Below, one piece after another: positions 8,547 through 35,052 of a DNA stretch of 64,000 bases. This DNA comes from Minisyncoccota bacterium (GTDB taxonomy: Bacteria > Patescibacteriota > Minisyncoccia > Phycocordibacterales > JACRKE01): assembly GCA_041660505.1 (NCBI GenBank), contig JBAZWG010000001.1, positions 609,768-673,767 on the forward strand, given 5' to 3'. The position numbers and the translations under genes are program-made. Position 1 is the stretch's first letter, and each line of letters opens with the position of its first letter. The notes under the pieces were generated by a model. That model did not search any database and was not told where the DNA came from. It saw only the letters and a list, made by a program, of their open reading frames with translations.

Positions 8547-9404
8547 ATGAGCAATGGAACGTTGGTTGATCCAGTGAGTCCAGAAGAGTACCACCGGGCG
8601 AGGCAGAAGTTGCAAGAATTCTTTACCAAGAAGGGTCTCACCTGGGCGGTCGCTCAGCAGAGGCTCTCAATTCTCTCGGCCTGCGAGAACCATCTCTCCA
8701 TCGCGCTCCACGCATTTGCCGGCCAGACCTGGCCACTCCATCAGACGAACCAGATGGAGTTGGAAAAGATGCTCTTGGAGAACCAGGGGTCGACGGGCTA
8801 TTTCTGCGACACGACCTCGTATCGCGAGGAACCGACCCCCAAGAAGGGCAGGCACAACCTGATCTTCCCTATGGTGGAGTTCGAGCTCCCAGGGAACTTC
8901 GAGGTGCTCCTGGCCTTCCTGCAGGATCTCGTCCAGCACCTCGGATTCGTCAAGGCGCCGGCCCCCGTCGTTGACTACCGCGACTACGCCAAGAAGTGCG
9001 GAGTCGAGGAGCTCGGCGATGAACACGAAACCCAACTCTTCCGCGAGCTCGGTCCGGTCGTGATGCTCGTCGACTTCCCGATGAGCACCTCGCCGTTCTG
9101 GAACATGCGGCTCGACGGCGGTCCCGGCGAAAAGATCGCACGAAAGTGCGACGTCATCGTCTGCGGACAGGAGACGATCGGTAGCGCCGAGCGCTCTTGC
9201 GATCCCGAGCAGATGCGGAAGTCCTTCCGTGCAGTCTCTGGTGGAGACTACGCGAGGACGCTCTTCGCACGCTTCTGCAGCGGGCGGGTCCTGGAGGAGT
9301 TGGAAGACTTCCTCTCGCTTCCGTTCTTCCCGCGCTGTGGCGGAGGAATCGGGATGACCCGGCTCATCCGGGCTACACGGATGGTCGGCCTCATTGACAA
9401 GTAG
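8547..9404 (+). CDS. class II aminoacyl-tRNA synthetase catalytic-core paralog (EpmA/AsnA-like, no anticodon-binding domain)
   Basis: Class IIb motif 2 YREEPTPKKGRHNLIFPMVEFEL and motif 3 GGGIGMTRL; about 285 aa, so the catalytic core only; RBS AAGGAGG 8 nt before the ATG at 8547. Confidence 0.65.
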   Translation: MSNGTLVDPVSPEEYHRARQKLQEFFTKKGLTWAVAQQRLSILSACENHLSIALHAFAGQTWPLHQTNQMELEKMLLENQGSTGYFCDTTSYREEPTPKKGRHNLIFPMVEFELPGNFEVLLAFLQDLVQHLGFVKAPAPVVDYRDYAKKCGVEELGDEHETQLFRELGPVVMLVDFPMSTSPFWNMRLDGGPGEKIARKCDVIVCGQETIGSAERSCDPEQMRKSFRAVSGGDYARTLFARFCSGRVLEELEDFLSLPFFPRCGGGIGMTRLIRATRMVGLIDK

Positions 9405-9420
9405 TACGGTCAACCTAGAA

Positions 9421-9455
9421 CCGGCTCCCTTCGTTCGCGAAGGGAGCCGGTTTCG
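9421..9455 (+). terminator. hairpin terminator CCGGCTCCCTTC-GTTCGC-GAAGGGAGCCGG followed by TTTCG
   Basis: Perfect 12-bp stem right after the aaRS-like gene. Confidence 0.55.
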
Positions 9456-9468
9456 CGTCTGCCTAGCA

Positions 9469-9512
9469 TTAGAAGGTTCAACCTTTTTGATGCTTAAGGT
9501 TGAACCTTCTTG
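9469..9512. repeat. AAGGTTCAACCTT / AAGGTTGAACCTT double-palindrome hairpin element (family copy a)
   Basis: Arms AGAAGGTTCAACCTT and AAGGTTGAACCTTCT are perfect reverse complements. Confidence 0.7.
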
Positions 9513-9583
9513 TGCGTTATAAAACGAAAAGGGGATCGCGACCTTGCGGTTGCGACCCCCTTTTGAACCAGATGAAAGCAGGA

Positions 9584-10189
9584 TTACTTCTTGCCCTTGC
9601 CGACGTCCATACTCACGGGGATGTCGGCTTCGCAGAACGAGCACTCCTCCGATGCCCATGAGTCGAGAGTGATGTTCACTAGCGACTCAAGCCTCGGCGC
9701 GCCAATATCGAAAGCGGTGACGCCTCCGCGATTGCAGATAGCGCCCACGCCCACGACCTCGCCGCCGATGGCGCGGACGACCTCGACGACCTTCTTCACC
9801 GAGCCGCCGGTCGTCAGGACATCCTCGACGACGAGCACTGTCTTGCCAGCCACGATCTTGTCGTAACCGCGCTTCACTACGAACCCGCCGTCGGCCGACT
9901 TCTCGGCGTAGACACTCATTGCGTCTGAGTGTACGAGCTCCGAGAGTTGATAGGCCACCCATTGGGAGAGGATGAGCCCGCCCATCGCGGGCCCGACGAC
10001 CACCTGCGGTCGTTCTGCCAAGAAGCGGCCGGCCAGGTACAGGCAGAGCTCGCCCGTCAACCTAGGATGCACGTAAATCGCATCCTTGTTGATGTACCTG
10101 TTGCCGTGCCGGCCACTTGTGTAGACGAAGTGGCCCTCGAGTAAGGCACCCACTGCCTTGATCTTCTCCATGACACTGACTTCTTTCAT
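9584..10189 (-). CDS. pyrE: orotate phosphoribosyltransferase
   Basis: PRTase motif VLVVEDVLTTGGS; start set at MKEVSVMEKIKAV, since the ORF track start is further upstream. Confidence 0.78.
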   Translation of the reverse strand: MKEVSVMEKIKAVGALLEGHFVYTSGRHGNRYINKDAIYVHPRLTGELCLYLAGRFLAERPQVVVGPAMGGLILSQWVAYQLSELVHSDAMSVYAEKSADGGFVVKRGYDKIVAGKTVLVVEDVLTTGGSVKKVVEVVRAIGGEVVGVGAICNRGGVTAFDIGAPRLESLVNITLDSWASEECSFCEADIPVSMDVGKGKK

Positions 10190-10205
10190 GAGACCTCCTT
10201 GCGGG

Positions 10206-11021
10206 TCATGATCGGTATCGGTTGATTGCGTCATGCAGTCGCTGCGTCTCGCGTCGCGCCGCCTCTGCGAAGTTCTGTCCGCCACCGGCGAAGATGATGC
10301 TCCGTGAGGCGGCAATGATCATGCCTTGACCCCGCGAGTCTTTGCCAGCAGCGACGGTCGCTTCGAGATCTCCGCCTTGCGCGCCGATACCCGGGACGAG
10401 GATTGGCATGTCGCCGACAATCTTGCGCACGGCGCGCAGTTCGTCGGGATATGTTGCGCCGACGACCACGGCACAGTTGCCGTTCTCGTTCCATGCGCAT
10501 GCAACGTTCAGGGCGACCACTCGGTAGAGCGGCACGCCGCCGACGAGCAGATTCTGGAATTCGCCGGCGCCGACATTTGACGACCTGCAGACGATTATAC
10601 AACCCTTGTCCTTCTGGGCGAGGAATGGCTCGAGAGCCTCCTTGCCGAAGTAAGGGTTCAGGGTGACGGCGTCGGCGTGCAGGTATCCGAACGCTTGCTC
10701 GACGTAGCCGACATTGGTGTTGCCAATGTCGGCGTACTTGGCGTCCAAGATGATCGGCACCTCGGGGGCGATGGCATTCGCCTCCGAGACGGTGTGATAG
10801 AGCGCGAGGATGCCCTCGATGCCTTGTGCCACGTAGAAGGCCAAATTGACTTTGTACGCGCAGACGAGGTCGCTGGTGTGCTCGATGATGGCGCGGTTGA
10901 ACGCGCGAATCCTATCGAGCTTCGACGGGTACTTGACCTCCGCCGGGATCTTGCCGAGCTCGCTGTCGAGTCCGACGCAGACGCTCTTGCCTTGCTCCCA
11001 CCGAGCCTTGAGCATCTCCAT
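10206..11021 (-). CDS. pyrF: orotidine 5'-phosphate decarboxylase (long type 2 form)
   Basis: ILDAKYADIGNT matches the OMPdecase DxKxxDIxNT motif; about 270 aa from MEMLKAR. Confidence 0.75.
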   Translation of the reverse strand: MEMLKARWEQGKSVCVGLDSELGKIPAEVKYPSKLDRIRAFNRAIIEHTSDLVCAYKVNLAFYVAQGIEGILALYHTVSEANAIAPEVPIILDAKYADIGNTNVGYVEQAFGYLHADAVTLNPYFGKEALEPFLAQKDKGCIIVCRSSNVGAGEFQNLLVGGVPLYRVVALNVACAWNENGNCAVVVGATYPDELRAVRKIVGDMPILVPGIGAQGGDLEATVAAGKDSRGQGMIIAASRSIIFAGGGQNFAEAARRETQRLHDAINRYRS

Positions 11022-22854: not shown

Positions 22855-23214
22855 ATGGAAGGCTCACCGAAGCTCTATAAAGAGTCGCGCCCGTGGGGGA
22901 ACTTCGAACGCTTCACCCTGAACGAACCGACGACAGTCAAGATAATCACGGTTAACCCCGATGAGGCCTTTAGTTTGCAAACACATGATCATCGCAACGA
23001 ATTCTGGCGCGTGCTTAATGGCTCCGGCTTGGTGCAGATAGGGGAGGCGGAGCATGAGGCGCAGGAAGGCGATTCTTTCCTCATCAAGGCGCACGAGAAG
23101 CACCGCGCAACGGCCGGTACGAACGGGCTGGTTATGCTGGAAATTGCCTTCGGCGAGTTCGATGAAAAAGATCTTACTCGAATAGAAGATCGTTATGGGC
23201 GCGCTCAACAATAA
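22855..23214 (+). CDS. cupin-fold protein, mannose-6-phosphate isomerase type II (ManC C-terminal) like
   Basis: WGNFERF...VKIITVNPDEAFSLQTHDHRNEFWRVLNGSG...EGDSFLI...HEKHR cupin motifs with His ligands. Confidence 0.62.
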   Translation: MEGSPKLYKESRPWGNFERFTLNEPTTVKIITVNPDEAFSLQTHDHRNEFWRVLNGSGLVQIGEAEHEAQEGDSFLIKAHEKHRATAGTNGLVMLEIAFGEFDEKDLTRIEDRYGRAQQ

Positions 23215-24316
23215 TCCTAATAATTTTTGGCCGGTCGTTTTATTCTTCCTCGCGATATTCGCCTTAGCCTTTTTCTATCATTGGCTCACACGCAAGAAAA
23301 TTTCGGCGCCGGTCATACTCCTTCGCTTGCCCGAGAATCCCATCCTCTCGCCCGTCAAAGAACATTGGTGGGAGTCAGAGGCGGTCTTCAATCCCGCAGC
23401 GTTCGTGGATGACGGCAAAGTACACCTCTTCTATCGCGCCTTGGGCCGTGATGGCATTTCGCGCATTGGCTACGCCTGGAGTACGGACGGCTTGCACTTC
23501 GAGCGTTTGTCATACCCCGTATTCTCTGCCGAGAACGTGCAGGAAGTGAAGAGCCACTTCCCCTACACCTCGCCGGTGCGCTTGTCCTATGACACGGTCA
23601 ACAATCCATCCGGTGGCGGCTGGGGAGGCTTAGAAGACCCGCGGGCTATAAAGATTGACGGCCGTATTTACCTTACCTTCAACGCTTTCAACGGCTGGGA
23701 GTCGATGCGCGTCGGCTTGACCTCGATAAGCGAAGAAGATTTTAAAAATAAGAATTGGAACTGGCGCAAGTTCGTCTACCTTACCGACGAACGCAACAAG
23801 AATTGGATGTTCTTCCCCGATAAAATTAACGACAAGTTCGCGCTCCTCCACAGTATCTACAGCGAGAATGGCGAACGCGTCCAGATTAAATATCTTGATA
23901 GCTTGCATATTCACGGCCCGCTCCAGAATCTCAAGTCCGCCGACCCGCACAGGCTTAAGGACCAGAAGATAGCCTGGCACTATCGCATCCGCAGTGCCGG
24001 CACGCCGCCGTTGCGCACCAAGTACGGCTGGCTGGTCTTGTACCACGCAATGGATCCGAATGAGCCGAGCCGGTACAAAGTCGGCGCCCTGCTCCTCGAC
24101 CTCGCTTCGCCCACCAAGGTCATCGCGCGGAGCGACCATCCTATCCTCGAGCCGGACATGTGGTACGAGAACGATTGGAAGCCGGGGATAGTCTACGCCT
24201 CCGGTGCTGTAGTTCTCGGTGAAGATCTCATGGTCTACTACGGCGGCGGTGACAAATATGTCGCCGGCGCAAAAGTGAATTTGGAGTTGCTTATCAAGAG
24301 CCTAATGCGACAGTAG
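23195..24316 (+). CDS. GH130-family glycoside phosphorylase-like protein (DUF377), N-terminal TM anchor
   Basis: NPA..YRALG.DG.SRIGYA.S.DG motif and C-terminal VYYGGGD; five-bladed propeller family signature. Confidence 0.68.
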   Translation: MGALNNNPNNFWPVVLFFLAIFALAFFYHWLTRKKISAPVILLRLPENPILSPVKEHWWESEAVFNPAAFVDDGKVHLFYRALGRDGISRIGYAWSTDGLHFERLSYPVFSAENVQEVKSHFPYTSPVRLSYDTVNNPSGGGWGGLEDPRAIKIDGRIYLTFNAFNGWESMRVGLTSISEEDFKNKNWNWRKFVYLTDERNKNWMFFPDKINDKFALLHSIYSENGERVQIKYLDSLHIHGPLQNLKSADPHRLKDQKIAWHYRIRSAGTPPLRTKYGWLVLYHAMDPNEPSRYKVGALLLDLASPTKVIARSDHPILEPDMWYENDWKPGIVYASGAVVLGEDLMVYYGGGDKYVAGAKVNLELLIKSLMRQ

Positions 24317-26160: not shown

Positions 26161-26550
26161 ATGCATTTTGGCGAACATCTGATGATTGACGGTTATGGTG
26201 GCGACACGGAACTTTTGAATTCCGAGGCACTCGTCCGTAAAATTCTGACAGAATTACCAGTGCAGTTAGGGATGCAAACTTTGGCGGCACCCGTAATAAT
26301 TTCTGCTCCCGACAACGATAAAAAAGACCCCGGTGGCTGGAGCGGCTTCGTCGTTATTGCCGAGAGTCATGTGAGTATTCATACTTTTCCCAAGCGCGGT
26401 TTCGTCAGTATCGATGTGTACACCTGTAGGAATGGACTCGATATTGAAACTATCAAAGCCTATTTCACCGGCTCATTCGCGCTCGCCGAACTCGAGACCA
26501 ACTTCGTCTTACGCGGTAAGAAGTATCCGCAACAAAACATTCATGCATGA
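26161..26550 (+). CDS. speH: S-adenosylmethionine decarboxylase proenzyme (small pyruvoyl type)
   Basis: Self-cleavage motif AESHVSIHTFPK...SIDVYTCRNG matches ESHxxIHTWPE...FTCG; 129 aa. Confidence 0.78.
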   Translation: MHFGEHLMIDGYGGDTELLNSEALVRKILTELPVQLGMQTLAAPVIISAPDNDKKDPGGWSGFVVIAESHVSIHTFPKRGFVSIDVYTCRNGLDIETIKAYFTGSFALAELETNFVLRGKKYPQQNIHA

Positions 26551-27479
26551 CAGAGCTTCCAGCCTTTCCCGAATTTAAGCAGATAGAGCTGGCAGACCGA
26601 TCGTCGGTAGAAAAACTGACAGAAAAATTTCCGCCATATTCAGACTTTCATTTCTCCAGTTTGTATTCTTGGGACATCAACAAAAAAATGGGATTATCCG
26701 TGCTGAACGGCAATCTGGTGGTTTTGTTCAATGATTATATTTCCGGAAGTTTTTTCCTGACATTTATTGGAGATTCAAAGATTTCTGAAACAGCCTCCAT
26801 ACTGCTAGATTTTTCAAAACAGAATGGTTATGAAAGCTCCCTAAAACTTATTCCCGAAGAAATGGCAAAAGTATTGTCGGAAACAGGATTCTCTGTAGAG
26901 CCCGATGCCGGAGCTCATGATTACATCTATTCGATTGAACGTCTCGCAAACATGGAAGAATGGAGTAAGAGCACACAAAAGAAGCAGATCAGAAAATTTA
27001 TGGATACGAACCCTCAGTACTCCGCTCGGATATTACCCACTAAGGAATTAGACAAACGAGAATACCTCGAACTTTTTAAACAATGGGCAACCAACAAAAA
27101 TCTCCTTGATCACACGGAGTTGAACGAGTATAAAGCCTTTAGCCGGCTTCTGGCCGAAAACAATGGCGATGTTGAAATGTTGTCTATATATAGCGACGAG
27201 TCGTGTAAAAAAATGATCGGATTTACATCGTTTGAAACGATATCCGATGACTACGCCATAGCGCATTTTTCTAAAGCCGATATTAAGCATCACGCCGCAA
27301 TTTACTGCGTTTTGATATGGGAAGAGGCGAAATATCTTCAGAAAAAGGGTATAAAGCACTACAATTGGGAACAGGACCTGGATATACCTGGACTACGCAC
27401 TTTCAAAATGTCCTACAAGCCGGAATTTTTCTTAAAGCAGTACACGGTGAGTTTACCTGTGTTGTCGTCACAATCGTAG
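26547..27479 (+). CDS. hypothetical 310-aa protein translationally coupled to speH; AT-rich; not spermidine synthase
   Basis: ATGA overlap with the speH stop; no SpeE GGGDGG motif. Confidence 0.55.
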   Translation: MTELPAFPEFKQIELADRSSVEKLTEKFPPYSDFHFSSLYSWDINKKMGLSVLNGNLVVLFNDYISGSFFLTFIGDSKISETASILLDFSKQNGYESSLKLIPEEMAKVLSETGFSVEPDAGAHDYIYSIERLANMEEWSKSTQKKQIRKFMDTNPQYSARILPTKELDKREYLELFKQWATNKNLLDHTELNEYKAFSRLLAENNGDVEMLSIYSDESCKKMIGFTSFETISDDYAIAHFSKADIKHHAAIYCVLIWEEAKYLQKKGIKHYNWEQDLDIPGLRTFKMSYKPEFFLKQYTVSLPVLSSQS

Positions 27480-27504: not shown

Positions 27505-28617
27505 ATGATAATCATTGACCTGAAATTTCTTGTTAGAAAACGAGCGAATTTATTTTTTCTTATCGACAATCTCTCTTTTCCTATTGATTCAATGCACCGA
27601 GATTACAACCGTGAGTGGCTGGAGCTTTTCGGACAACTGTCGGATAGCGAGAATAATGCGCTCGAAAAATACAGGTTGTTTAAAAAGTCTATCTGGGACA
27701 GAGGGGGAGGCAAACTACTTACTCGTTTTGAATCTGCCTTTTATCAATTTTCAGAATTAGACCTGAGAGAAGAAAAATTATTACTAAATATTCTTACCGA
27801 AGAAGAGTCTGGCGAATTAGATAAAATCTTTAGCTATTTTCAAGGCAGGTTTGAACTAATGTGGGAAAATTATTGTCGGATTCTCTCGAATAATCTTATC
27901 TTTCTTGAAAACGATTTTGCTTCCGTTCAACAAGTGTTTAGTGAGACACTCTCTGTAATTGGCGGGTTGTATGGGGTTAATAATTTTAACGATCGAATCG
28001 AAGTCTTTCTTATGATGCGACCGGCCACCGGGTTTTCCGGAGGGAGAATGATTAGCCGAAAGCCCCCTATAGTAATGATCGAGAGCGGGATTTCTAAACC
28101 ACAAGATCTTGACCAAATAAATCATCTGCGGCTATTACTTTTTCATGAGCTCACTCACGCCTGTTTTGAAAACGAACGTTTTTTAAAATTTCTCGGTGAA
28201 TATATCGAAAAGAAAACTCCACTCACTCACTTTCTTGAGAAATACCCCTCAACAAAGACTCCAGCTTTGGCCACCCGCCGAGCAATGCGAGAAATGATTA
28301 TTAACTCCATTGAATATAGTACGTACGTTCGAGGTCGGCTTGAACAAGGTTGTGAGATAAATTCCAATAATGGGGAAACTATTCTGAACGAAATTCGAAA
28401 CAAAAAATCTTTTAAACTCGCGAAAGGCACCCAAGAGAAACGCTCTATTATTTTGACCAGCGGAGAGGATACTTACCGGTATGTCGCGTGGAAGCTAGAA
28501 GGAATTGTGCGACCATATCTTGATAATAAAAAGCGCATAGATGATGAATTCTTAGACGGTGTTTATGATGTCTTAAAAGCATTTCCGGATAACCTTCTTG
28601 ATGATTTGAAATTGTGA
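27505..28617 (+). CDS. hypothetical protein with HExxH motif (LLFHELTHACF), possible metallopeptidase
   Basis: Single HELTH motif; AT-rich; converges on the rSAM gene end. Confidence 0.5.
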   Translation: MIIIDLKFLVRKRANLFFLIDNLSFPIDSMHRDYNREWLELFGQLSDSENNALEKYRLFKKSIWDRGGGKLLTRFESAFYQFSELDLREEKLLLNILTEEESGELDKIFSYFQGRFELMWENYCRILSNNLIFLENDFASVQQVFSETLSVIGGLYGVNNFNDRIEVFLMMRPATGFSGGRMISRKPPIVMIESGISKPQDLDQINHLRLLLFHELTHACFENERFLKFLGEYIEKKTPLTHFLEKYPSTKTPALATRRAMREMIINSIEYSTYVRGRLEQGCEINSNNGETILNEIRNKKSFKLAKGTQEKRSIILTSGEDTYRYVAWKLEGIVRPYLDNKKRIDDEFLDGVYDVLKAFPDNLLDDLKL

Positions 28618-28674
28618 ACAAAAAGGCTGGCTCCCTAGAAACCCAGGAACCAGCCAAACTCCTCATCCTTTCTG

Positions 28675-29931
28675 TTAGTGATCAAGGATGTGTCTAAGGA
28701 GGTTCTTCGAAAATTCCCTGATTGCTTCGCATCGATAGCTCCTCTCTTTCCAGAAAGCTTCTGGTGAGACTTCGGCTTTATTGGCAGGGCAGTCTCCCTT
28801 ACAACCAAATTGAGCGAAGCAGTTCTGGCAGTCGGGAATACTCCTGACATTGAATTGCCGGAGGTGTCTGTATCGGTCTGCATCGAACACGAAAGCCTGT
28901 TGTTTTGGATCGTACTGTCCGAAACAAAATAGCAAAGCAGCGTCGTTTGCGCCCACACCGGCCATTCTATGGCAGGAAACAACTCGGCCGTCATAGGTGA
29001 TTGTGAAGTTCTTGCCAGCGGCTCCACAAAAAGCGCTACCCGTTGTCCGCCACGCCTGTGCAAGCGATGTTCTTATGCTAACGTTCAACGTTTTGGCAAC
29101 TTCAGACGCCTCAGTGAATTTCCCTAAGAATAGGGAGTCCACTGGTGGTTGAGCAAGCGGATTGACTTTCGCTCTCCCCATCGCGAAAAGTGGTTCGTAG
29201 GTTTGGACGCAACCAGGGAATCGTTCCCCGAAAAATCTCACCATTTCAGTCAGACGGTGAACGCTTGCTGCGGAAATGGTGGAACGGAACCTTAGTTTGT
29301 GCGGTGCAATCTGATAGATTTCCGTTGCCGCATCGAACACGCGGTCGAAACTCTTGCCCCGTTGCGCATCGTGGATATCCTTGGGCCCATCCACGGATAG
29401 TAGTATGTTGTCCATGTTCTCGGCGAGCCACCTGGCCTTTTGAGACGACATACAACCGTTGGTAGTGATTCCTGCCGAGCTCTCGAGACCCTGTTCTGAC
29501 GCTTGCGCGTGGAGGTACTGTACCGCTCCGACCAAGGTAGTCCAAGGTAGTGTCGGTTCACCGCCGAACATCCATGCACCGACCTTGCGCTTTCCTGAGT
29601 CTCTCGCAGATTTTATGAGATGGTCGACAGTAGCTCGGACAACCTCAGTCGGCATCGTTATGGTTTCTGTCGGCCGCGGGACGTAACCTCCAAAGCAGTA
29701 GATGCACCCAAGCTTGCACTGGTTAGTGAGCATCAAGGTTGCACCCGTAAAGAGGTAGTTCGGTTCTTCCGCTACCTCTTTTTGTATCGTCGAAGTCGGG
29801 GCGGTTACAAAATCTGGGATTGTTTCTGCAACATTCGCTTCGACCCGATACACCTTTCGCATTGTGGGAACGTAAATAATGACGCTATCTCCGTCTTGAA
29901 TCTTGAAGAGTCGGTGTTGAACAAGTTCCAT
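28675..29931 (-). CDS. radical SAM enzyme with C-terminal SPASM domain (RiPP peptide maturase-like)
   Basis: CxxxCxxC at LTNQCKLGCIYCFG; SPASM CX2CX5CX3C at CQNCFAQFGCKGDC plus flanking Cys; about 65-aa N-terminal extension; RBS ACGGAGG 6 nt before the ATG. Confidence 0.85.
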   Translation of the reverse strand: MELVQHRLFKIQDGDSVIIYVPTMRKVYRVEANVAETIPDFVTAPTSTIQKEVAEEPNYLFTGATLMLTNQCKLGCIYCFGGYVPRPTETITMPTEVVRATVDHLIKSARDSGKRKVGAWMFGGEPTLPWTTLVGAVQYLHAQASEQGLESSAGITTNGCMSSQKARWLAENMDNILLSVDGPKDIHDAQRGKSFDRVFDAATEIYQIAPHKLRFRSTISAASVHRLTEMVRFFGERFPGCVQTYEPLFAMGRAKVNPLAQPPVDSLFLGKFTEASEVAKTLNVSIRTSLAQAWRTTGSAFCGAAGKNFTITYDGRVVSCHRMAGVGANDAALLFCFGQYDPKQQAFVFDADRYRHLRQFNVRSIPDCQNCFAQFGCKGDCPANKAEVSPEAFWKERSYRCEAIREFSKNLLRHILDH

Positions 29932-29951
29932 GGATAACCTCCGTTATTATG

Positions 29952-29988
29952 GATCGAGGGTGGAAGCTATACGCTTCCACCCTCGATC
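29952..29988 (-). promoter_or_regulatory. perfect 16-bp stem-loop (GATCGAGGGTGGAAGC-TATA-CGCTTCCACCCTCGATC) between precursor ORF and maturase
   Basis: No U-run on the transcribed strand, so more likely an attenuator or processing/stability hairpin than a full terminator. Confidence 0.6.
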
Positions 29989-30014
29989 TTCTTCGAGTCA
30001 ACGACAGTTAGTTG

Positions 30015-30161
30015 TTACTCGCCGCAGCTGTCTCCATCTCCCCAGCAACCGTCTTGGTCCGAGTCGCATGCACTGCAACTTCGTGACGTGTCGGATGGAA
30101 GCGATGCGCTTGCGCAGGCAAGCCCTTCCAGCTGCTCCAGGGTCAAAGTCGGCTCTCTCAT
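30015..30161 (-). CDS. unannotated 48-aa Cys/Asp-rich RiPP precursor peptide candidate (ranthipeptide/SCIFF-like)
   Basis: Minus strand reads CGAAAGGAGGTGCCTATG...TAA. It translates to MREPTLTLEQLEGLACASASLPSDTSRSCSACDSDQDGCWGDGDSCGE. RBS AAGGAGG lies 5 nt upstream. Five Cys with nearby Asp/Ser/Thr at the C-terminus, helical acidic leader. Below the 60-aa ORF-track cut-off. Confidence 0.6.
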   Translation of the reverse strand: MREPTLTLEQLEGLACASASLPSDTSRSCSACDSDQDGCWGDGDSCGE

Positions 30162-30200
30162 AGGCACCTCCTTTCGTTGTCGAAGATCATTGTCAAGCTG

Positions 30201-30231
30201 ATTCTACCCCCCCCCTATTGCAATTTGTCAA
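30201..30231 (-). promoter_or_regulatory. promoter for the precursor peptide: TTGACA-N19-TAGAAT with a G9 (C9 on plus) tract in the spacer
   Basis: Reverse complement of plus 30201-30231; C9 run at 30207-30215; the 19-nt spacer is suboptimal; direct repeats TTGTCAAG at 30190-30197 and 30225-30232. Confidence 0.45.
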
Positions 30232-30419
30232 GTCCTTCGACTGAGCGAATTCCAAAGTGATTCCAAAACCTTAACTGTTAGACGGGCATGTACACCCGGA
30301 TACTTACTAACCTACGCCATTGGGGATATATAGTCGATTTACCAACTTCTCTCTGTTAGGTTCTTGTGATACGATTAGTGTATGGATAGAATCTCAAAAG
30401 TGTTACTGGGTGCGATAGT

Positions 30420-31373
30420 ATGCCTAGTTGTATCTTCGGTATTATATTCATTTTATTCGACAGTCGTTCGACAAGATTTTCAGGTGAGCGACACGACTCC
30501 CGCAACCGAATAATTACATATATTCCCATGCAATCAGATCAAAATCAATATTGGTCAATGACAGAAGGTGTCTTTAACTGTCTCATTGACACCGAGCGAA
30601 CCGAAGCCTTTCAAAAAGCTATACGAAATACGGTAAAAAGGGGTGATATTGTTGTCGATCTCGGGTCTGGCTCCGGGGTCATGGCTATGTTCGCCGCCGA
30701 CGCAGGTGCGGCAAAGGTATACGCCGTTGAAATAGATTTGCGCAATATAAAAACGCTCCGAGATACGTTTGCAAAAAATGGATATGCAGACGTGATTACA
30801 GTTATCGAGGGGGATGCCACAAGTGTTGTGTTGCCAGAAAAAGTTGATGTGATTATCGCAGAGATGGTTGCGACTGGCCTGATTGAAGAACTACAAATTC
30901 CAGCGATGAATAATGCGCTCATGTATAAAAAGGAGAGAACACGCGTTGTTCTAAGCCGAATTGATAACTATATTGATCTCGTTTTTAATAATCCTGTATT
31001 TTATAATCACACGTTCAATATCTTCCGTTACGAATATCCGGACATCGAGCAGCTACGATCAAATAGTTTTTCTGACAGGATTATATATTCTTCTATAGAC
31101 TTCAACCATGTATGCAGTGAGAGGAATGTGGATGCAACATACGAAGTCTCGATTACTAACGACGGGGTGATTAATGCGCTCAGAATAAGCACCGACACTT
31201 TTTTTGCTGACAATTCAACACTTGGTCCTACCTATGCCTACGCATATCCGTTAATTCTCCCCATCCCCGAATCCAAGGTTAAAAAAGGAGATATTTTTTC
31301 GGTAAAAGTGTCCTACGAGCTCTGCGGAGGTTTCGATGGGTTCTCATACTCGGTAACTAAAAAAAATGTTTAG
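30420..31373 (+). CDS. PRMT-like class I SAM-dependent methyltransferase
   Basis: DTERTEAFQKAI...DIVVDLGSGSGVMAMFAADAGAAKVYAVE (motif I and post-I) and VDVIIAEMV match the protein arginine methyltransferase family pattern; alternative start at 30528; stop overlaps the HK start. Confidence 0.6.
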   Translation: MPSCIFGIIFILFDSRSTRFSGERHDSRNRIITYIPMQSDQNQYWSMTEGVFNCLIDTERTEAFQKAIRNTVKRGDIVVDLGSGSGVMAMFAADAGAAKVYAVEIDLRNIKTLRDTFAKNGYADVITVIEGDATSVVLPEKVDVIIAEMVATGLIEELQIPAMNNALMYKKERTRVVLSRIDNYIDLVFNNPVFYNHTFNIFRYEYPDIEQLRSNSFSDRIIYSSIDFNHVCSERNVDATYEVSITNDGVINALRISTDTFFADNSTLGPTYAYAYPLILPIPESKVKKGDIFSVKVSYELCGGFDGFSYSVTKKNV

Positions 31374-33075
31374 CAACTACTATTGCCCGGGAAATCTCTC
31401 CGTGCTCGGGGCCTTTGATTTCAGTTATGCCCCCACGCTCATTTTTTATGCTTACATACCAATAATTCTTGTCTCGATATTTTTCGGATTATTGCTTATT
31501 TTCAGAGATAAGTTTTCTATTCAGGGAAAGCTTATCTTTCTGCTTTCACTCTTCTTTTCGTTTTGGAATCTTAATGTTATTGCCGAGTGGATAACCGTCC
31601 CCGTCAACCTAAATCATTTTTTTTGGCAACTAACCATGCTGTTTGAGATGCCGATTCCGCTACTCGCGATATACCTCACTCTTGTTTTTATCTACAAAAA
31701 GGATATTTCGAGCAAGTTAAAAATATTACTGACTATATTTTTCCTGCCGGTCCCACTGCTTCTGGCGACCGTCTATAATATCGGCGTATTTGATGTGCAA
31801 AATTGTCAGCCAGCAGTCGGTTGGTTAACGTATTACGTCTATGCGATCGAGATTTTTTCCATTCTATGGATTGTTATAGCCGCGTATAGAAAATACCAGA
31901 TCGAATCAAGCCCCTCCGAAAAAAAACAAATTCTTCTGATGGTTTCTGGTATATCACTATTTCTCCTTACCTTTTCTTTGTCGAATATTCTCGGCGAGTG
32001 GACTCAATTTTATCAAATCAACCTTATCGGTCCTATTGGTATGGTGGTGTTTCTGGCGCTCATGACTTACCTTATCGTCAAGTTCAAGACCTTCAATATC
32101 AAGCTTATTGGTACACAGGCTTTGGTGTGGGCGCTTATTATACTTATCGGGTCGGAGTTTTTCTTCATCCAAACAAACGTCAATAGAATTCTCACTGCCG
32201 TTACCCTTGTAATATCGGCTTGGATGGGTCTCATAATTGTGAGAAGCGTAAAGAAGGAAATTGAGGCTCGTGAGATTATCGAAGGTATGGCGAAGAAACT
32301 TGAGGGGGTTAACACCGAGCTCGAGGGTGCCAATGCCAAGCTCAAGGTACTTGACCAACAGAAGTCGGAGTTTGTCTCTATTGCTTCGCATCAGTTGCGG
32401 TCGCCGCTCACAGTCATTAAGGGCTATTTATCCATGATGATCGAGGGCGAGCCGGAGTTGGCCGACCTTAAGGCGGGGACTATCACGCCGAAGGGGGTGG
32501 AGGTCATGAACACGATGTTCCAATCGACCAACCGCTTGGCGCATATTATTGAAGACTTCTTGAACGTCTCGCGCATCGAGCAGGGCAAGATGAAATACGA
32601 GATGAGCGACTTCGACATCCGCCAGATGGCGCGGGAAGTGGTGGGTGAATTCCAAGCCGAGGTGGGCGAGAGGAAACTGACGCTTATCTGCACCGACAAG
32701 TCGCCAAACGCGAGCTATATGGTCTACGCCGACGCGGGCAAGCTCCGCCAAGTCATCGGCAATATTATTGACAACTCTATCAAGTACACGCCGCAGGGCG
32801 GGATCACTGTCTATCTTGAACGTCTGGCGGATAGTACTAGACTTTCGGTGAAGGACACCGGCATCGGCATCTCGGCCGAGAACCTTAAGAATTTGTTCCA
32901 GAAGTTCTCTCGCGCATCGAACGGCGGTAAGGTCAACGTGACAGGATCCGGCCTCGGCCTCTTCGTCGCTGTCGAAATTATGAAGGCGCATAAAGGCAAG
33001 CTGTGGGCAGAGTCGGATGGAGAAGGCAAGGGCTCAACTTTCGTGATAGAACTTCCAATTAAAAAACGGAATTAA
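31366..33075 (+). CDS. sensor histidine kinase with about 8-TM N-terminal membrane sensor domain; no response regulator adjacent
   Basis: H-box SIASHQLRSPLTVIKGY; HATPase_c N/G boxes (IIDNSIKYT, GSGLGLFVAVEIM); start overlaps the MTase stop. Confidence 0.85.
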   Translation: MFSNYYCPGNLSVLGAFDFSYAPTLIFYAYIPIILVSIFFGLLLIFRDKFSIQGKLIFLLSLFFSFWNLNVIAEWITVPVNLNHFFWQLTMLFEMPIPLLAIYLTLVFIYKKDISSKLKILLTIFFLPVPLLLATVYNIGVFDVQNCQPAVGWLTYYVYAIEIFSILWIVIAAYRKYQIESSPSEKKQILLMVSGISLFLLTFSLSNILGEWTQFYQINLIGPIGMVVFLALMTYLIVKFKTFNIKLIGTQALVWALIILIGSEFFFIQTNVNRILTAVTLVISAWMGLIIVRSVKKEIEAREIIEGMAKKLEGVNTELEGANAKLKVLDQQKSEFVSIASHQLRSPLTVIKGYLSMMIEGEPELADLKAGTITPKGVEVMNTMFQSTNRLAHIIEDFLNVSRIEQGKMKYEMSDFDIRQMAREVVGEFQAEVGERKLTLICTDKSPNASYMVYADAGKLRQVIGNIIDNSIKYTPQGGITVYLERLADSTRLSVKDTGIGISAENLKNLFQKFSRASNGGKVNVTGSGLGLFVAVEIMKAHKGKLWAESDGEGKGSTFVIELPIKKRN

Positions 33076-33135: not shown

Positions 33136-35052
33136 ATGTATATCATCAAGCGCAGCACGCACAATCCGCTCATTGCACCATTGAATGACAAGCAGTGGGA
33201 GTCGCGCGCGACATTCAACCCTTGCCCCGTCCGGCAAGGCAAGACGACGCACATGCTCTATCGCGCCTTGAGCCGGCCGGATGCCTTGCGCGAGCCCGAA
33301 GGCTTATCAACGATCGGCAAGGCAATCACAATGGACGGTGAACACTTCCAGGCGCGCAGGGCGTTCATCGTGCCGGAGCAGCCGTGGGAGAAGTATGGCT
33401 GTGAAGACCCGCGCGTTACATTCTTCGAGGGGAATTATGTGACGTTCTATACTGCTCTGGGTGGGATGCCCTTTGGCCCCGGCAATATCAAGGTGGCAGT
33501 GGCGCTGTCTAAAGATATGGAGCGCATCGACGAGAAGCATCTGGTCACACCCTTTAATGCCAAGGCGATGGTGCTCTTCCCCGAGCGAGTCGGCGGCAAG
33601 GTTACGGCAATATTCAGCGCGCACACCGATGAGCCACCGGTCAAGACTGTAATCGTCCAGGCCGACAAGCTCGAAGACTTTTGGGATTTGAAATTTTGGG
33701 AAAAGTGGCACGCGGAAATTGACGAGCACATCGTTAATCCTTTGCGCTTCAGCCACGACCATATCGAGGTTGGGGCGCCGCCATTGCGTACCAAAGACGG
33801 CTGGCTCTTGTTCTATTCTTATATCCAGAATTATTTCGGCGGAGGGGAGCGCGTCTTCGGCATCGAGGCATTACTCCTCGACTTCGATGACCCGCGCCAG
33901 ATAGTCGGCCGGACGAAGGGGCCGATCATGGTGCCGGAAGAAACTTACGAGAAGTACGGCATGGTGCCGAACATCGTCTTCCCCACGGGCGCGCTCCTGA
34001 ACACGAACGGCCGCGTGGATATTTATTACGGTGCGGCGGATACTGTCTGTGCGCGAGCCTCGTTAAGTTTACAAGATTTACTCAGCGCTATGGTGCCGGA
34101 ACGGCGCGCCCAACTCGCCGTGCGCGCGAAGGAGAATCCGATTCTTAAACCTGCTGAGGGCCACTCGTGGGAAAGCAAAGCGGTCTTCAACCCCGGGGCT
34201 ATCGAGATAGACGACACTATCTATTTGCTTTACCGCGCGATGGGTAACGATAATAATTCTGTTCTCGGCTATGCATCGACCAAAAATGGCGTGAAGATAA
34301 CAGAGCGTCTGGATCAGCCAGCCTATGTCCCGCGTGAAGACTTCGAGAAGAAAAGGGGTGGCAATACCTCGGGCTGTGAGGACCCGCGCCTGACCAGAAT
34401 AGACAATACAATTTACTTGGCTTACACGGCGTTCAACGGCGTCGACCCATGGCACGCGGCACTCTCCTCGATATCCGTAAAAGATTTCTTGGCCAAGCGC
34501 TGGGATATGTGGGAGAAGCCTCAACGTGTTACTCCGCCCCAGATACAGGATAAAGACGCCTGCCTTCTGCCAGAGAAAGTTGCTGATCAATACATGATCT
34601 TCCATCGCATCGATCCGATGATTTGCGCCGACTTTGTTGACTCTCTCGACTTCGCTAAGACTCCGCTCACGCGTTGTATCGAGATAATGGGGCCGCGGCC
34701 GGGTATGTGGGATAGCGCTAAGATCGGTATCGCCGGCCCGCCTATAAAGACAGATGCCGGCTGGCTTTTGCTCTATCACGGCGTGTCCAAGACCTCTACA
34801 TACAGACTCGGTGCTGTACTATTGGACTTGAAGAATCCCTCGATAGTGCTCTCGCGCTCTGTGGACACTATCTTCGAACCGCTTGAGGAGTACGAGCGCG
34901 TCGGCCAAGTACGCAATGCTGTGTTCTCGTGCGGGGCGGTGTTGCGCGGCAAGACCATCTATGTGTATTATGGCGGGGCGGATACGGTCGTGGGCGTAGC
35001 GAAGATAGCACTCGACAAGTTGCTCAAAATCCTGGCGCCGAAGAATTTATAA
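33136..35052 (+). CDS. tandem-duplicated GH130-family (DUF377) glycoside phosphorylase-like protein
   Basis: Two copies of the NP...YRA.G.D..S..G.A.S.DG ... YYGGAD pattern in a 638-aa protein. Confidence 0.7.
   Translation: MYIIKRSTHNPLIAPLNDKQWESRATFNPCPVRQGKTTHMLYRALSRPDALREPEGLSTIGKAITMDGEHFQARRAFIVPEQPWEKYGCEDPRVTFFEGNYVTFYTALGGMPFGPGNIKVAVALSKDMERIDEKHLVTPFNAKAMVLFPERVGGKVTAIFSAHTDEPPVKTVIVQADKLEDFWDLKFWEKWHAEIDEHIVNPLRFSHDHIEVGAPPLRTKDGWLLFYSYIQNYFGGGERVFGIEALLLDFDDPRQIVGRTKGPIMVPEETYEKYGMVPNIVFPTGALLNTNGRVDIYYGAADTVCARASLSLQDLLSAMVPERRAQLAVRAKENPILKPAEGHSWESKAVFNPGAIEIDDTIYLLYRAMGNDNNSVLGYASTKNGVKITERLDQPAYVPREDFEKKRGGNTSGCEDPRLTRIDNTIYLAYTAFNGVDPWHAALSSISVKDFLAKRWDMWEKPQRVTPPQIQDKDACLLPEKVADQYMIFHRIDPMICADFVDSLDFAKTPLTRCIEIMGPRPGMWDSAKIGIAGPPIKTDAGWLLLYHGVSKTSTYRLGAVLLDLKNPSIVLSRSVDTIFEPLEEYERVGQVRNAVFSCGAVLRGKTIYVYYGGADTVVGVAKIALDKLLKILAPKNL

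Follow-up and report, generated by a model that had tools for sequence, protein, structure and literature searches.

A conserved Patescibacteria cassette encoding a small membrane protein, a PRMT-fold methyltransferase and a polytopic histidine kinase

Gene layout and base composition of the locus

The window (the whole 64-kb stretch of DNA analysed) contains an ORF with class-I methyltransferase motifs, here termed MT, followed by a histidine kinase ORF at 31366–33075. A small gene upstream of MT, termed c2, was overlooked in the preliminary description of this DNA. The features of the region are listed below in window coordinates.

26547–27479, + strand: LPG_synthase_C-like gene of aminoacyl-transferase fold (LPGsynC-like; Pfam PF09924, 75 bits)
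27505–30167, both strands: lineage-specific block outside the cassette, with orf370 (+), an rSAM-SPASM maturase (−) and a precursor (−)
30168–30381, no strand: 214 bp of intergenic DNA separating c2 from the divergent precursor gene
30382–30513, + strand: c2, the first cassette gene, a 43-aa single-pass membrane protein with MDRISK, one TM segment and then FYSTVVRQDFQV; matched by the c2 HMM
30528–31373, + strand: MT, a PRMT-fold SAM-dependent methyltransferase of 281 aa, with Rossmann domain, beta-barrel and an invariant double-E loop
31366–31373, + strand: 8-nt overlap of the MT stop and the kinase start, ATGTTTAG, read directly from the sequence
31366–32250, + strand: kinase sensor domain, nine TM helices, N-out/C-in; marginal HisKA_7TM match
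32251–33075, + strand: kinase transmitter, with coiled-coil linker, HisKA (Pfam, 54.2 bits, cut-off 26.9) and HATPase_c (Pfam, 92.2 bits, cut-off 26.4)

The MT stop codon (TAG, 31371–31373) lies beyond the kinase ATG at 31366, so that the overlap noticed earlier is genuine, and its 8 nt couple translation of the two genes. The gap between c2 and the MT start is 14 nt. MT had previously been started at 30420; all 23 of 23 aligned homologues begin at 30528, which is the true start, and the 36-codon upstream extension overlaps the c2 gene in another frame. Given the corrected start and the presence of c2, the divergent region shared with the precursor gene is therefore 214 bp and not the 360 bp formerly given. 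This region presumably holds the cassette promoter. A consensus promoter scan of it returned six sites against 5.3 expected from shuffled sequence, and thus no promoter was assigned; in the promoter and terminator consensus scans alike, sites were no more numerous than in shuffled sequence. The annotation gains a corrected start codon and a missed small gene, and the RiPP cluster is set apart from its neighbours.

The GC content is 0.417 in MT, 0.399 in the sensor half of the kinase gene and 0.531 in its catalytic half, with a window mean of 0.503. The claim that both genes are AT-rich compared with their neighbours holds for MT and the sensor half, but not for the catalytic half, and the upstream LPGsynC-like gene (0.407) and orf370 (0.387) are equally AT-rich. 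Low GC3 in the sensor half is evident in seven of seven orthologous kinase genes examined, the window gene among them; it is thus a property of the gene, and a foreign origin of the AT-rich 5′ part was rejected. The compositional outlier is the rSAM/precursor pair (0.51 and 0.60, respectively).

Properties of the three cassette proteins

MT is a PRMT-fold enzyme. Its SAM motif I (VVDLGSGSG) and post-I acidic residue (KVYAVE) correspond in alignments to those of PRMT7, CARM1 and PRMT1, confirming the pattern recognized in the preliminary description, and G46, G48, G50 and E68 are invariant across 24 homologues. The double-E loop of PRMTs consists of two Glu approximately nine residues apart that clamp the guanidinium group. 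In MT this loop is AEMVATGLIEEL, with E112, E120 and E121 invariant, and HMMER alignments place E112 and E121 on the first and second Glu, respectively, of the PRMT7/CARM1 loops. The C-terminal beta-barrel is packed on the Rossmann domain as in PRMTs, and the entire two-domain architecture, including the peptide-binding beta-barrel, has been kept. MT groups with PRMTs and not with small-molecule O-methyltransferases; grouping with the latter had been named as part of what would refute the first interpretation. It contains no TM segment and is predicted to be cytoplasmic.

The arginine pocket of PRMTs is completed by the THW loop (Thr-His-Trp or a close variant). The hhalign alignment of MT with human PRMT1 ends before this loop; extended by eye, it leads to the F/Y-A-Y of FAYSYP (A237, Y238), which contains no His or Trp and is nearly invariant among MT homologues. 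The dimerization-arm segment is approximately 18 residues shorter (two gaps) than in PRMT1, is mostly irregular in the structural model and carries an invariant RYEYP motif. Since the THW loop is not recognizably conserved and the arm is shorter, arginine specificity is not assured.

PRMT-like proteins had been considered uncommon in bacteria but prove not to be particularly rare among prokaryotes: at least 166 relatives were confirmed in species-representative genomes of many phyla, and 244 clusters were obtained at 50 % identity (E ≤ 1e-30). No MT–kinase fusion occurs in the 150 top-scoring representatives found with the MT profile; the fusion partners in this set are LPG_synthase_C-like, CxxCxxCC and NNMT-like domains and a Cys-motif domain without a Pfam match, which may be radical-SAM-like. 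NCBI and JGI name MT homologues '50S ribosomal protein L11 methyltransferase' or 'predicted RNA methylase', and the top Pfam match of MT is PrmA (49 bits). Neither name fits. Membership in PrmA, the ribosomal protein L11 methyltransferase, requires the equivalog score together with an L11-binding N-terminal domain, and was rejected for MT at 46.7 bits against an equivalog cut-off of 183.

The kinase contains nine hydrophobic segments, oriented N-out/C-in by the positive-inside rule, and the AF2 model of the sensor likewise has nine helices (pLDDT 90.6); the protein is thus multi-pass as first described, with nine helices in place of about eight. The predicted sensor fold resembles GPCR 7TM bundles, and an extracytoplasmic beta-hairpin between TM4 and TM5 carries the invariant C147. 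HisKA_7TM (PF16927) gives a marginal match to the window kinase over profile positions 5–222 of 224, and several orthologues have a precomputed PF16927 match. H342 lies in SHQLRSPL and the N, G1, F and G2 boxes are intact; invariant in 25 orthologues are H342, N466/D469/N470, D497-G499-G501, F511/F514 and G527-G531 (G527xGLGL). By these motifs the protein is a HisKA-class sensor histidine kinase. The orthologue alignment shows the sensor domain to be conserved across the phylum, and the sensor and kinase halves are conserved to a similar degree in most orthologue comparisons.

The kinase had been called an orphan, and within the 64-kb window this proved correct: tblastn with CheY, PhoB, NarL and two Campbellbacteria receivers returned no response regulator, and a REC HMM search with filters off (--max) gave a best E value of 1.3. 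There is no classical two-component operon with an adjacent response regulator in the window. Receiver proteins are encoded near the kinase in five relatives, a REC-REC gene directly following the kinase only in L001 and lying 2–4 kb away in L002, L004, L081 and L092.

The single TM segment of c2 spans residues 7–23. The c2 HMM matches the window gene with an E value of 2.4e-17 and finds c2 at 18 of 23 kinase loci, each time on the strand of the kinase and upstream of it, with zero matches in loci lacking the kinase. The N-terminus reads MDKKSK, MDKRSK or MDRISK, without an invariant Arg, and approximately six residues are predicted to be cytoplasmic. The N-terminal part is conserved and the C-terminal tail variable; a juxtamembrane motif, FYKxxIxxDF, is conserved across lineages, and in its long forms c2 has an ectodomain rich in Cys.

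Conservation of the cassette and of its neighbours

A kinase gene follows MT in 15 of the 20 close MT loci (MT at least 46 % identical), and in 12 orthologous loci, window included, the gap between the two is −8 to +15 nt. The MAGs concerned are labelled Moraniibacteriota, Paceibacterota, Campbellbacteria and Saccharibacteria. The coupling of a methyltransferase to a polytopic histidine kinase, proposed originally for this one locus, is thus kept across Patescibacteria, in which c2, MT and the kinase form a tight operon and a three-gene cassette. The remaining five close MT loci have no kinase nearby, and MT homologues of other phyla (at most 37 % identical) have no such kinase alongside. Kinase genes near distant non-Patescibacteria PRMT-like genes were seen at 5 of approximately 140 loci, which a rough estimate places at chance level, and were therefore not counted as linkage. 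Of ten loci picked via the kinase alone, six have no adjacent methyltransferase, and MT is thus an accessory, not an obligate, partner. No kinase alignment columns track the presence of the methyltransferase, in a comparison of low power (16 linked against 6 unlinked sequences).

Small genomes of such bacteria keep much of their gene order, and some adjacency may be inherited and not functional. The flanking AdoMetDC, GARS-like ATP-grasp and EamA genes are also syntenic. Additionally, genes for AdoMet decarboxylase, Orn/Arg decarboxylase and a probable deoxyhypusine-synthase-like protein (a putative assignment from sequence reading) recur in the neighbourhood.

Replacement of MT beside orthologous kinases is apparent at several loci. 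SET-domain methyltransferase genes lie next to the kinase at three of them: L164, where the gene overlaps the kinase start by 4 nt, the P0234 locus, and L169, where one gene intervenes. To our knowledge, SET-domain enzymes are known only as protein lysine methyltransferases. In L168 the gene upstream of the kinase is a PRMT-like paralogue (32 % identical), and in L084 MT and the kinase are separated by an inserted GAMT homologue. In a rough kinase tree, the kinases linked to SET genes are spread over at least two clades, and one of these is sister to the PRMT-linked kinases. Because the slot upstream of the kinase holds a paralogous PRMT-like, a SET-domain or an additional GAMT-homologue gene, an Arg/Lys methyltransferase working with the receptor kinase is suggested; it is chiefly the non-orthologous displacement, by the paralogous PRMT-like or SET-domain gene, that points to a role as a protein Arg/Lys methyltransferase.

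The block separating c2 from the LPGsynC-like gene is of a different nature. Its orf370 contains HExxH, and the best NCBIfam match of its PapB-like rSAM-SPASM maturase is PapB, below cut-off. The precursor is rich in Cys and Asp and probably starts at an ATG at 30161; it has Arg at position 2 of the product started there and in DTSRSC. The rSAM and precursor genes carry GGAGG Shine–Dalgarno sites, which the other compared genes lack. In the closest relative, L084, the LPGsynC-like gene, c2 and MT are adjacent, with no rSAM/precursor block between them. This absence and the difference in GC and Shine–Dalgarno usage show the block to be an insertion in the window lineage, independent of the cassette.

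Proposed function, alternatives and comparison with known systems

The preferred reading, with about an even chance of being right, sees in the region a single copy of an ancient signalling cassette of Patescibacteria (c2, PRMT-fold MT, nine-TM HisKA-type kinase), transcribed and translated as a unit, in which MT methylates a pathway protein. The kinase and c2 would form a membrane sensor for a phylum-wide signal, with c2 as an accessory subunit, much as other sensor kinases are modulated by small membrane proteins. MT, in the cytoplasm, would methylate basic residues (Arg, possibly Lys) of one of three candidate targets: the kinase, c2 at its Lys/Arg-rich cytoplasmic N-terminus, or an unlinked response regulator. 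Methylation may set or adapt signalling output, loosely like CheR acting on chemoreceptors. The cognate response regulator would be encoded elsewhere, and in relatives is probably a REC-REC or single-REC protein.

Peptide sensing could account for the locus in two ways. The preliminary description linked the two operons through their shared control region and pointed to the kinase as a sensor of the peptide. In this model of a functional divergon, rSAM-modified peptide and kinase would form a loop of quorum or autoinduction type, the peptide may also be tailored by the PRMT-like enzyme, and control of both operons would lie in the divergent region. The operons are indeed adjacent and divergent, the precursor contains Arg, and the closest bacterial relatives of PRMTs are placed in peptide secondary-metabolite operons as peptide methylases in a published analysis (Aravind and co-workers, summarized in PMC3417536). 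Additionally, of 24 loci, four have a RiPP-type rSAM gene (SPASM or PqqD) no more than about 5 kb from the kinase, namely the window, L004 (which also has a possible Cys-rich ORF of 54 aa), the P0234 locus and L170; this is somewhat above expectation by a rough estimate of a 3 % base rate. However, these genes occupy non-orthologous positions in differing orientations. The suggested check of co-occurrence found an rSAM gene beside MT in only 2 of the 20 close MT loci, the window and L004, with rSAM and precursor missing from the other 18; the L004 rSAM is 23 % identical to that of the window and differently positioned, and L092, a close relative of L004, has none. The cassette of L084 is intact without the block, MT and kinase are kept across the phylum without rSAM, the GC and Shine–Dalgarno usage of the rSAM and precursor genes is unlike that of the cassette, and the evenly conserved sensor half is unlike that of pheromone receptors. 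Since the rSAM and peptide genes are a later insertion, the kinase is probably not the sensor of that peptide and should not be read as such, and since the sensor is conserved across the phylum, a common signal is indicated in place of a lineage-specific peptide. The divergon is thus quite unlikely, and classification as a peptide-pheromone or RiPP-sensing kinase module was rejected. In an Agr-like autocrine circuit, c2 itself would be a membrane-targeted pro-peptide, modified by MT, with its acidic C-terminal tail or ectodomain released or displayed and read by the GPCR-fold sensor. The order of small peptide, modifying enzyme and polytopic receptor kinase, the variable c2 tail beside a conserved N-terminal part, the tandem c2–MT units of L003 (order c2-MT_B, c2-MT_A, kinase) and the 'peptide methylase' designation in the same text would agree with this. 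Yet MT is cytoplasmic while just some six c2 residues are predicted to be so, the cassette has no conserved protease or exporter, neither FYKxxIxxDF nor the sensor domain co-diversifies, both being conserved from lineage to lineage, and a Cys-rich ectodomain is typical of a stable membrane-anchored protein; such a circuit is very improbable.

The LPGsynC-like gene bears on the substrate of MT. It is probably linked to the cassette and parted from c2 in the window by the inserted block: it adjoins c2 and/or MT in L084, L089, L003 and L168, is divergent to a 34 %-identical MT in L097, and in P0290 is fused to a PRMT-like MT, the C-terminal domain being homologous over its full length to the window gene and 27.6 % identical to it over 322 aa (E 5e-32). 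Fusion and synteny point to a possible non-protein substrate, whereby MT and the aminoacyl-transferase would act on a non-protein or aminoacylated compound, e.g. a Lys/Arg lipid head group (N-methylation) or a small guanidino/amino compound, and the kinase with c2 would monitor the resulting envelope state. The L084 GAMT homologue (E 6e-46) belongs with a small-molecule enzyme, guanidinoacetate N-methyltransferase, and the recurring decarboxylase and deoxyhypusine-synthase-like genes would also be in keeping with this. However, only 5 of the 23 kinase loci for which DNA was available contain the LPGsynC-like gene, the SET-domain fold of protein lysine methyltransferases replaces MT in three loci, the peptide-binding beta-barrel is retained, and the polyamine genes may merely be inherited synteny, all of which makes this reading rather unlikely. 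An absence of any functional link, with MT a housekeeping methyltransferase sharing an inherited operon position with the kinase, is of similarly low probability. The public L11 methyltransferase and RNA methylase names, the PrmA match, the syntenic outer flanks and the genomes with the kinase and no MT, or with MT and no kinase nearby, speak for it. Against it stand the low PrmA equivalog score, the start–stop spacing, which lineages with differing outer flanks have retained, and the repeated takeover of the MT slot by methyltransferases of unrelated fold, which is hard to explain by drift.

Returning to the signalling cassette, a bolder form of it is more doubtful than the cassette itself. 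In this form Patescibacteria hard-wire a GPCR-like 7TM-sensor histidine kinase to an interchangeable PRMT-fold or SET-domain methyltransferase, which tunes signalling by methylating Arg/Lys in a member of the receptor complex, be it the kinase, c2 or the regulator. If true, bacteria would possess a signalling circuit based on Arg/Lys methylation that is separate from chemotaxis, and protein-directed PRMT and SET enzymes could plausibly descend from such a setting. We know of no cellular role assigned to bacterial PRMT-fold proteins. The conserved PRMT/SET–kinase–c2 operon offers a concrete context in which to look for Arg/Lys methylation in bacterial signalling. The bacteria that carry it belong to a superphylum whose members have small genomes and are largely uncultured, and the operon also bears on the origin of eukaryotic PRMTs. 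A literature search returned nothing specific on bacterial PRMT–kinase or SET–kinase modules or on PRMTs in Patescibacteria, only PMC3417536 and PMC5847659 being relevant.

Eukaryotic type I–III PRMTs (PRMT1/3/6, CARM1, PRMT7) share with MT the Rossmann SAM-binding domain and C-terminal beta-barrel, motif I, the post-I acidic residue, the N-terminal hhxDxxRT motif (CLIDTERT in MT) and the double-E loop with two Glu nine residues apart. MT differs in being only 16–23 % identical in sequence, in its 281-aa length without N-terminal extensions, in the shorter arm with its family-specific RYEYP, in the apparent replacement of the THW loop by F/Y-A-Y (read by eye, beyond the hhalign range), and in being bacterial and operon-encoded beside a sensor kinase. 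The 'peptide methylases' of secondary-metabolite operons, as portrayed in PMC3417536, belong to the same bacterial PRMT radiation, and the window MT likewise adjoins an rSAM peptide-modification pair. However, this pair is not co-conserved with MT, and the genes linked to the MT clade encode a sensor kinase and a small membrane protein, not NRPS, dioxygenase or amine oxidase.

HisKA_7TM kinases, a described family of unknown ligand (PMC5847659), resemble the window kinase in having an N-terminal polytopic sensor fused directly to HisKA and HATPase_c; the window kinase has two extra TM helices after the 7TM core and a beta-hairpin with an invariant Cys, and scores just under the Pfam cut-off (28.1 against 28.6 bits). 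As to the membrane partner, c2 compares with MgrB and SafA, small membrane-protein modulators of the sensor kinase PhoQ. In both cases a one-TM protein of fewer than 70 aa is encoded with a sensor kinase and presumably acts on it. There is no sequence relation, and c2 differs in lying upstream in the same operon, in its conservation across the whole superphylum and in its long, Cys-rich forms. Agr quorum sensing (AgrD/AgrB/AgrC/AgrA) similarly unites in one operon the genes for a small peptide, for a modifying enzyme and for a polytopic receptor histidine kinase, whereas the cassette has no AgrB-like membrane protease, adjacent response regulator, HPK10-type kinase or peptide–sensor co-diversification.

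Chemotaxis adaptation involves CheR, a chemoreceptor and the CheA kinase. The cassette differs from it in that receptor and kinase are one polypeptide and no demethylase is evident, and Pfam and NCBIfam detected no MCP, CheA/CheW, CheB or CheR-family domains in the cassette proteins; membership in this class was thus rejected in favour of a functional analogy. CheR O-methylates glutamate and has a different accessory domain, whereas the PRMT-fold MT would N-methylate basic residues. As a working analogy, the two systems would share a dedicated SAM-dependent protein methyltransferase whose gene is tied to a pathway of membrane receptor and histidine kinase.

Gene structure and composition of the cassette

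The plus-strand region 30382-33075 is a conserved, uncharacterised cassette of three genes rather than two; no description of this combination of c2, PRMT-fold methyltransferase (MT) and nine-transmembrane (9-TM) kinase was found in the searchable literature.

30382-30513, + strand: c2, ORF of 43 aa with a single hydrophobic segment, MDRISKVLLGAIVCLVVSSVLYSFYSTVVRQDFQVSDTTPATE
30528-31373, + strand: MT, 281 aa, start ATG at 30528, stop TAG
31366-33075, + strand: histidine kinase, 569 aa, start ATG at 31366, overlapped by the MT stop

The preliminary description had started MT at 30420, yet the resulting 36-codon extension is not conserved and overlaps the c2 ORF in another frame. All 23 aligned homologues (23/23) begin at the residue equivalent to ATG 30528, with xxxYWSMTEGVFNCLID, which leaves a spacing of 14 nt between the end of c2 and MT. 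Because c2 occupies 30382-30513, upstream of the corrected MT start, the control region that lies between the cassette and the divergently oriented precursor gene measures 214 bp (30168-30381) and not the 360 bp claimed. The proposed overlap of the MT stop with the kinase start is borne out and amounts to 8 nt (TAG ending at 31373, ATG at 31366). Thus, once the start codon is corrected and the missed gene c2 added, the original observation is largely right.

HisKA and HATPase_c domains are clear in the kinase, and all catalytic boxes are invariant across 25 orthologues. The kinase had been described as polytopic with about eight helices; it is indeed multi-pass, but there are nine hydrophobic segments in its first 300 residues, and the alternating basic loops fit an N-out/C-in topology. 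An AF2 model of the sensor half, built with 38 orthologues (pLDDT 90.6), likewise has nine helices; in addition, the N-terminus, which bears a nearly invariant C7, and the TM4-TM5 hairpin, which bears an invariant C147, together make up a small beta-sheet on the extracytoplasmic side. No receiver domain was detectable throughout the 64-kb window, in agreement with the reported lack of a nearby partner response regulator.

Both MT and the kinase had also been regarded as AT-rich compared with their neighbours. This holds for MT (GC 0.417) and the kinase sensor half (0.399) but not for the catalytic half (0.531), and the native genes upstream of the cassette are as AT-rich as MT and the sensor half. 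Low GC3 in the sensor half is shared by all seven orthologous kinase genes examined, the window's included, and is therefore uninformative on origin. Elsewhere, GC at positions 9000-11000 is 0.60, compared with 0.50 for the window as a whole. On either side of the region lies a GH130 (beta-1,4-mannooligosaccharide phosphorylase family) gene, at 23195-24316 and 33136-35052; the protein encoded by the latter is of double length (638 aa), with two matched stretches.

Partners of the kinase across Patescibacteria

Species-representative genomes and metagenome contigs were scanned for MT homologues with at least 46 % identity to the window MT and enough flanking DNA, which gave 20 distinct loci. 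An orthologous kinase lies downstream of MT in 15 of these, full length and 35-79 % identical in either half, and the gap between the two genes is -8 to +15 nt in 12 of the 15. One gene intervenes in locus L084, and two, c2 among them, in L091. The MAGs behind the kinase-bearing loci carry the labels Moraniibacteriota, Paceibacterota, Campbellbacteria (complete genome CP064977) and Saccharibacteria. No such kinase accompanies the MT homologues of other phyla, which are at most 37 % identical. The closest relative is L084, with identities to the window of 73 % for AdoMetDC, 65 % for the LPG_synthase_C-like gene, 62 % for MT and 60 % for the kinase. Its intervening gene (L084:2404-3117) has no Pfam match and is a clear homologue of guanidinoacetate N-methyltransferase (GAMT; E 5.6e-46 against rat GAMT 1xcj). 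The L084 operon contains a second guanidino-directed methyltransferase besides the PRMT-like MT.

Ten further look-ups were selected through the kinase alone. A paralogous PRMT-like gene (32 % identical to the window MT) lies directly upstream of the kinase in one, L168, three carry a SET-domain gene, of lysine-methyltransferase fold, and in the remaining six no methyltransferase is present upstream of the kinase.

L164:4483-5004: SET-domain gene, upstream, overlapping the kinase start by 4 nt
L169:3633-4190: SET-domain gene, upstream of the kinase with one unknown gene in between
P0234 locus: SET-domain gene, directly upstream of the kinase

The SET proteins of L164 and L169 are 40 % identical to each other, and in a rough neighbour-joining tree the SET-linked kinases are split between two positions, one of them sister to the PRMT-like-linked kinases. 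The slot just upstream of the kinase is thus repeatedly taken by methyltransferases of unrelated fold whose targets are basic side chains. This repeated filling is the strongest argument, albeit an indirect one, that MT works with the kinase and would act on Arg/Lys.

An unannotated, Pfam-less family of ~255-285 aa is also encoded directly upstream of the kinase or c2, and its L021 and L172 members share the motif ILYLARHIATPNFETLRF.

L021:8719-9573: Pfam-less family member
L169:4237-5001: Pfam-less family member
L170:4222-4992: Pfam-less family member
L172:3976-4791: Pfam-less family member

An HMM was built from the conserved part of c2 (MDKKSKIL, a hydrophobic stretch, then TFYKTIILKDFEV). 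It finds c2 in 18 of the 23 kinase loci with DNA, always upstream and on the same strand as the kinase, and in no examined locus lacking the kinase; c2 accordingly accompanies the kinase more faithfully than any other partner gene. It directly precedes MT in the window, L084, L003, L081, L089, L021 and L007, and directly precedes the kinase where MT is absent (L167, L171 and L172), while L003 has a tandem pair of c2-MT units followed by the kinase. Long forms with a Cys-rich acidic ectodomain occur in L001, L004, L021, L165 and L169. The product of c2 is most simply read as a putative membrane accessory subunit.

The kinase family has a wide distribution in Patescibacteria; the best 120 matches are full length and 41-60 % identical. 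Between the window kinase and its closest relatives (P0122/L084 and P0124), identity reaches 78-88 % in the catalytic half but only 32-46 % in the sensor half, which suggests fast divergence or sensor exchange in this sub-clade.

The adjacent rSAM-precursor pair

LPG_synthase_C-like, c2 and MT genes are adjacent in L084, whereas in the window 2.9 kb separates the first from c2 and holds the following genes.

27505-28617: orf370, no Pfam or NCBIfam family, HExxH motif (FHELTHA)
28675-30167, - strand: PapB-like rSAM-SPASM gene and Cys/Asp-rich precursor

The best NCBIfam match of the rSAM is the PapB ranthipeptide maturase at 108.9 bits (cut-off 340). The precursor, whose core has C-x2/3-D motifs, most likely starts at ATG 30161, 6 nt after AGGAGG. 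GC is 0.51 in the rSAM and 0.60 in the precursor, against ~0.40-0.42 in the cassette genes, and both have strong GGAGG Shine-Dalgarno sites, found at no other listed gene in 23-39 kb. Given the L084 arrangement, the deviant GC and these sites, the pair looks like a lineage-specific insertion. Beside it, orf370 could encode a metalloprotease for the rSAM-modified peptide.

RiPP-type rSAM genes occur near the kinase in 4 of 24 loci (the window, L004, L170 and the P0234 locus), and their positions and orientations differ among the four. A PqqD-rSAM lies divergently upstream of the kinase in the P0234 locus, and the rSAM of L170 is 4.5 kb upstream. In L004 a possible Cys-rich ORF directly follows the kinase and precedes the radical SAM gene; L092, a close relative of L004, has neither.

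L004, 12754-12918: possible Cys-rich ORF, 54 aa, …KCCYTSCMRC…
L004, 12951-14366: radical SAM gene, 471 aa, 23 % identical to the window rSAM-SPASM, Pfam Radical_SAM and Fer4_12 only

This recurrence is read as a possible insertion hotspot or weak association rather than as evidence of peptide sensing. The suggestion that the kinase senses the adjacent RiPP is not supported: the pair looks inserted, L084 lacks it, and conservation of the sensor domain across the phylum argues against a lineage-specific ligand.

Fold and possible substrate of the methyltransferase

Against Pfam, MT gives only generic class-I matches (PrmA on top at 49 bits, and a weak PRMT5 match), and all NCBIfam models stay far below their cut-offs (PrmA 46.7 bits against 183). 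However, the 60 best matches of a profile of 24 homologues to all PDB sequences are exclusively protein arginine methyltransferases, led by PRMT7 (1e-29) and CARM1 (2e-23) and including PRMT6, PRMT8, PRMT3 and PRMT1. In the AF2 model (pLDDT 89.8, pTM 0.86) a Rossmann domain leads into an all-beta domain, and the model's 50 best Foldseek matches (50/50) are PRMTs, at TM ~0.8 and full length. The assignment of MT as PRMT-like was therefore right. By contrast, the statement that such proteins are uncommon in bacteria was overstated, as many phyla contain more distant relatives; in Patescibacteria, judged from sequence matches, the family has many members (the best 120 of 310 matches are 48-63 % identical and ~280 aa long). 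Three representatives from the MT profile (P0267, P0273 and P0245) have PRMT-like domains fused either to a CxxCxxCC domain (PF03692) or to a C-terminal Cys-motif domain, the latter C-x10-C-x2-C and possibly radical-SAM-like.

Methylation of an aminoacylated lipid, or of a small guanidino or amino compound, is also allowed. P0290 (636 aa), one MT-profile representative, fuses a PRMT-like and an LPG_synthase_C-like domain, the latter matching window 26547-27479 over its full length (27.6 % over 322 aa, E 5e-32), and this fusion suggests a functional link between MT and its LPG_synthase_C-like neighbour. In five more loci (L084, L089, L003, L168 and L097) such a gene adjoins c2 or MT, the GAMT-like gene is present in L084, and polyamine-related neighbours recur. 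However, LPG_synthase_C-like genes occur in a minority of loci only, SET enzymes occupy the same slot as MT, and the whole PRMT peptide-binding architecture is kept; a lipid or small-compound substrate is for these reasons ranked below protein methylation. The favoured reading, drawn from gene context, is that Arg/Lys methylation by MT would tune the receptor-kinase complex.

Motif I, the post-I Glu, an N-terminal D..RT motif and the double-E loop (E112, E120, E121) are invariant in the MT family, and two glutamates of this loop align with those of PRMT7 and CARM1. Compared with eukaryotic PRMTs, the family is small (281 aa), its dimerisation-arm segment is ~18 residues shorter and has a family-specific RYEYP motif, and, in an alignment by eye, an invariant F/Y-A-Y stands in place of a recognisable THW loop. 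In view of these differences MT is described as a PRMT-fold enzyme, for which arginine specificity is likely.
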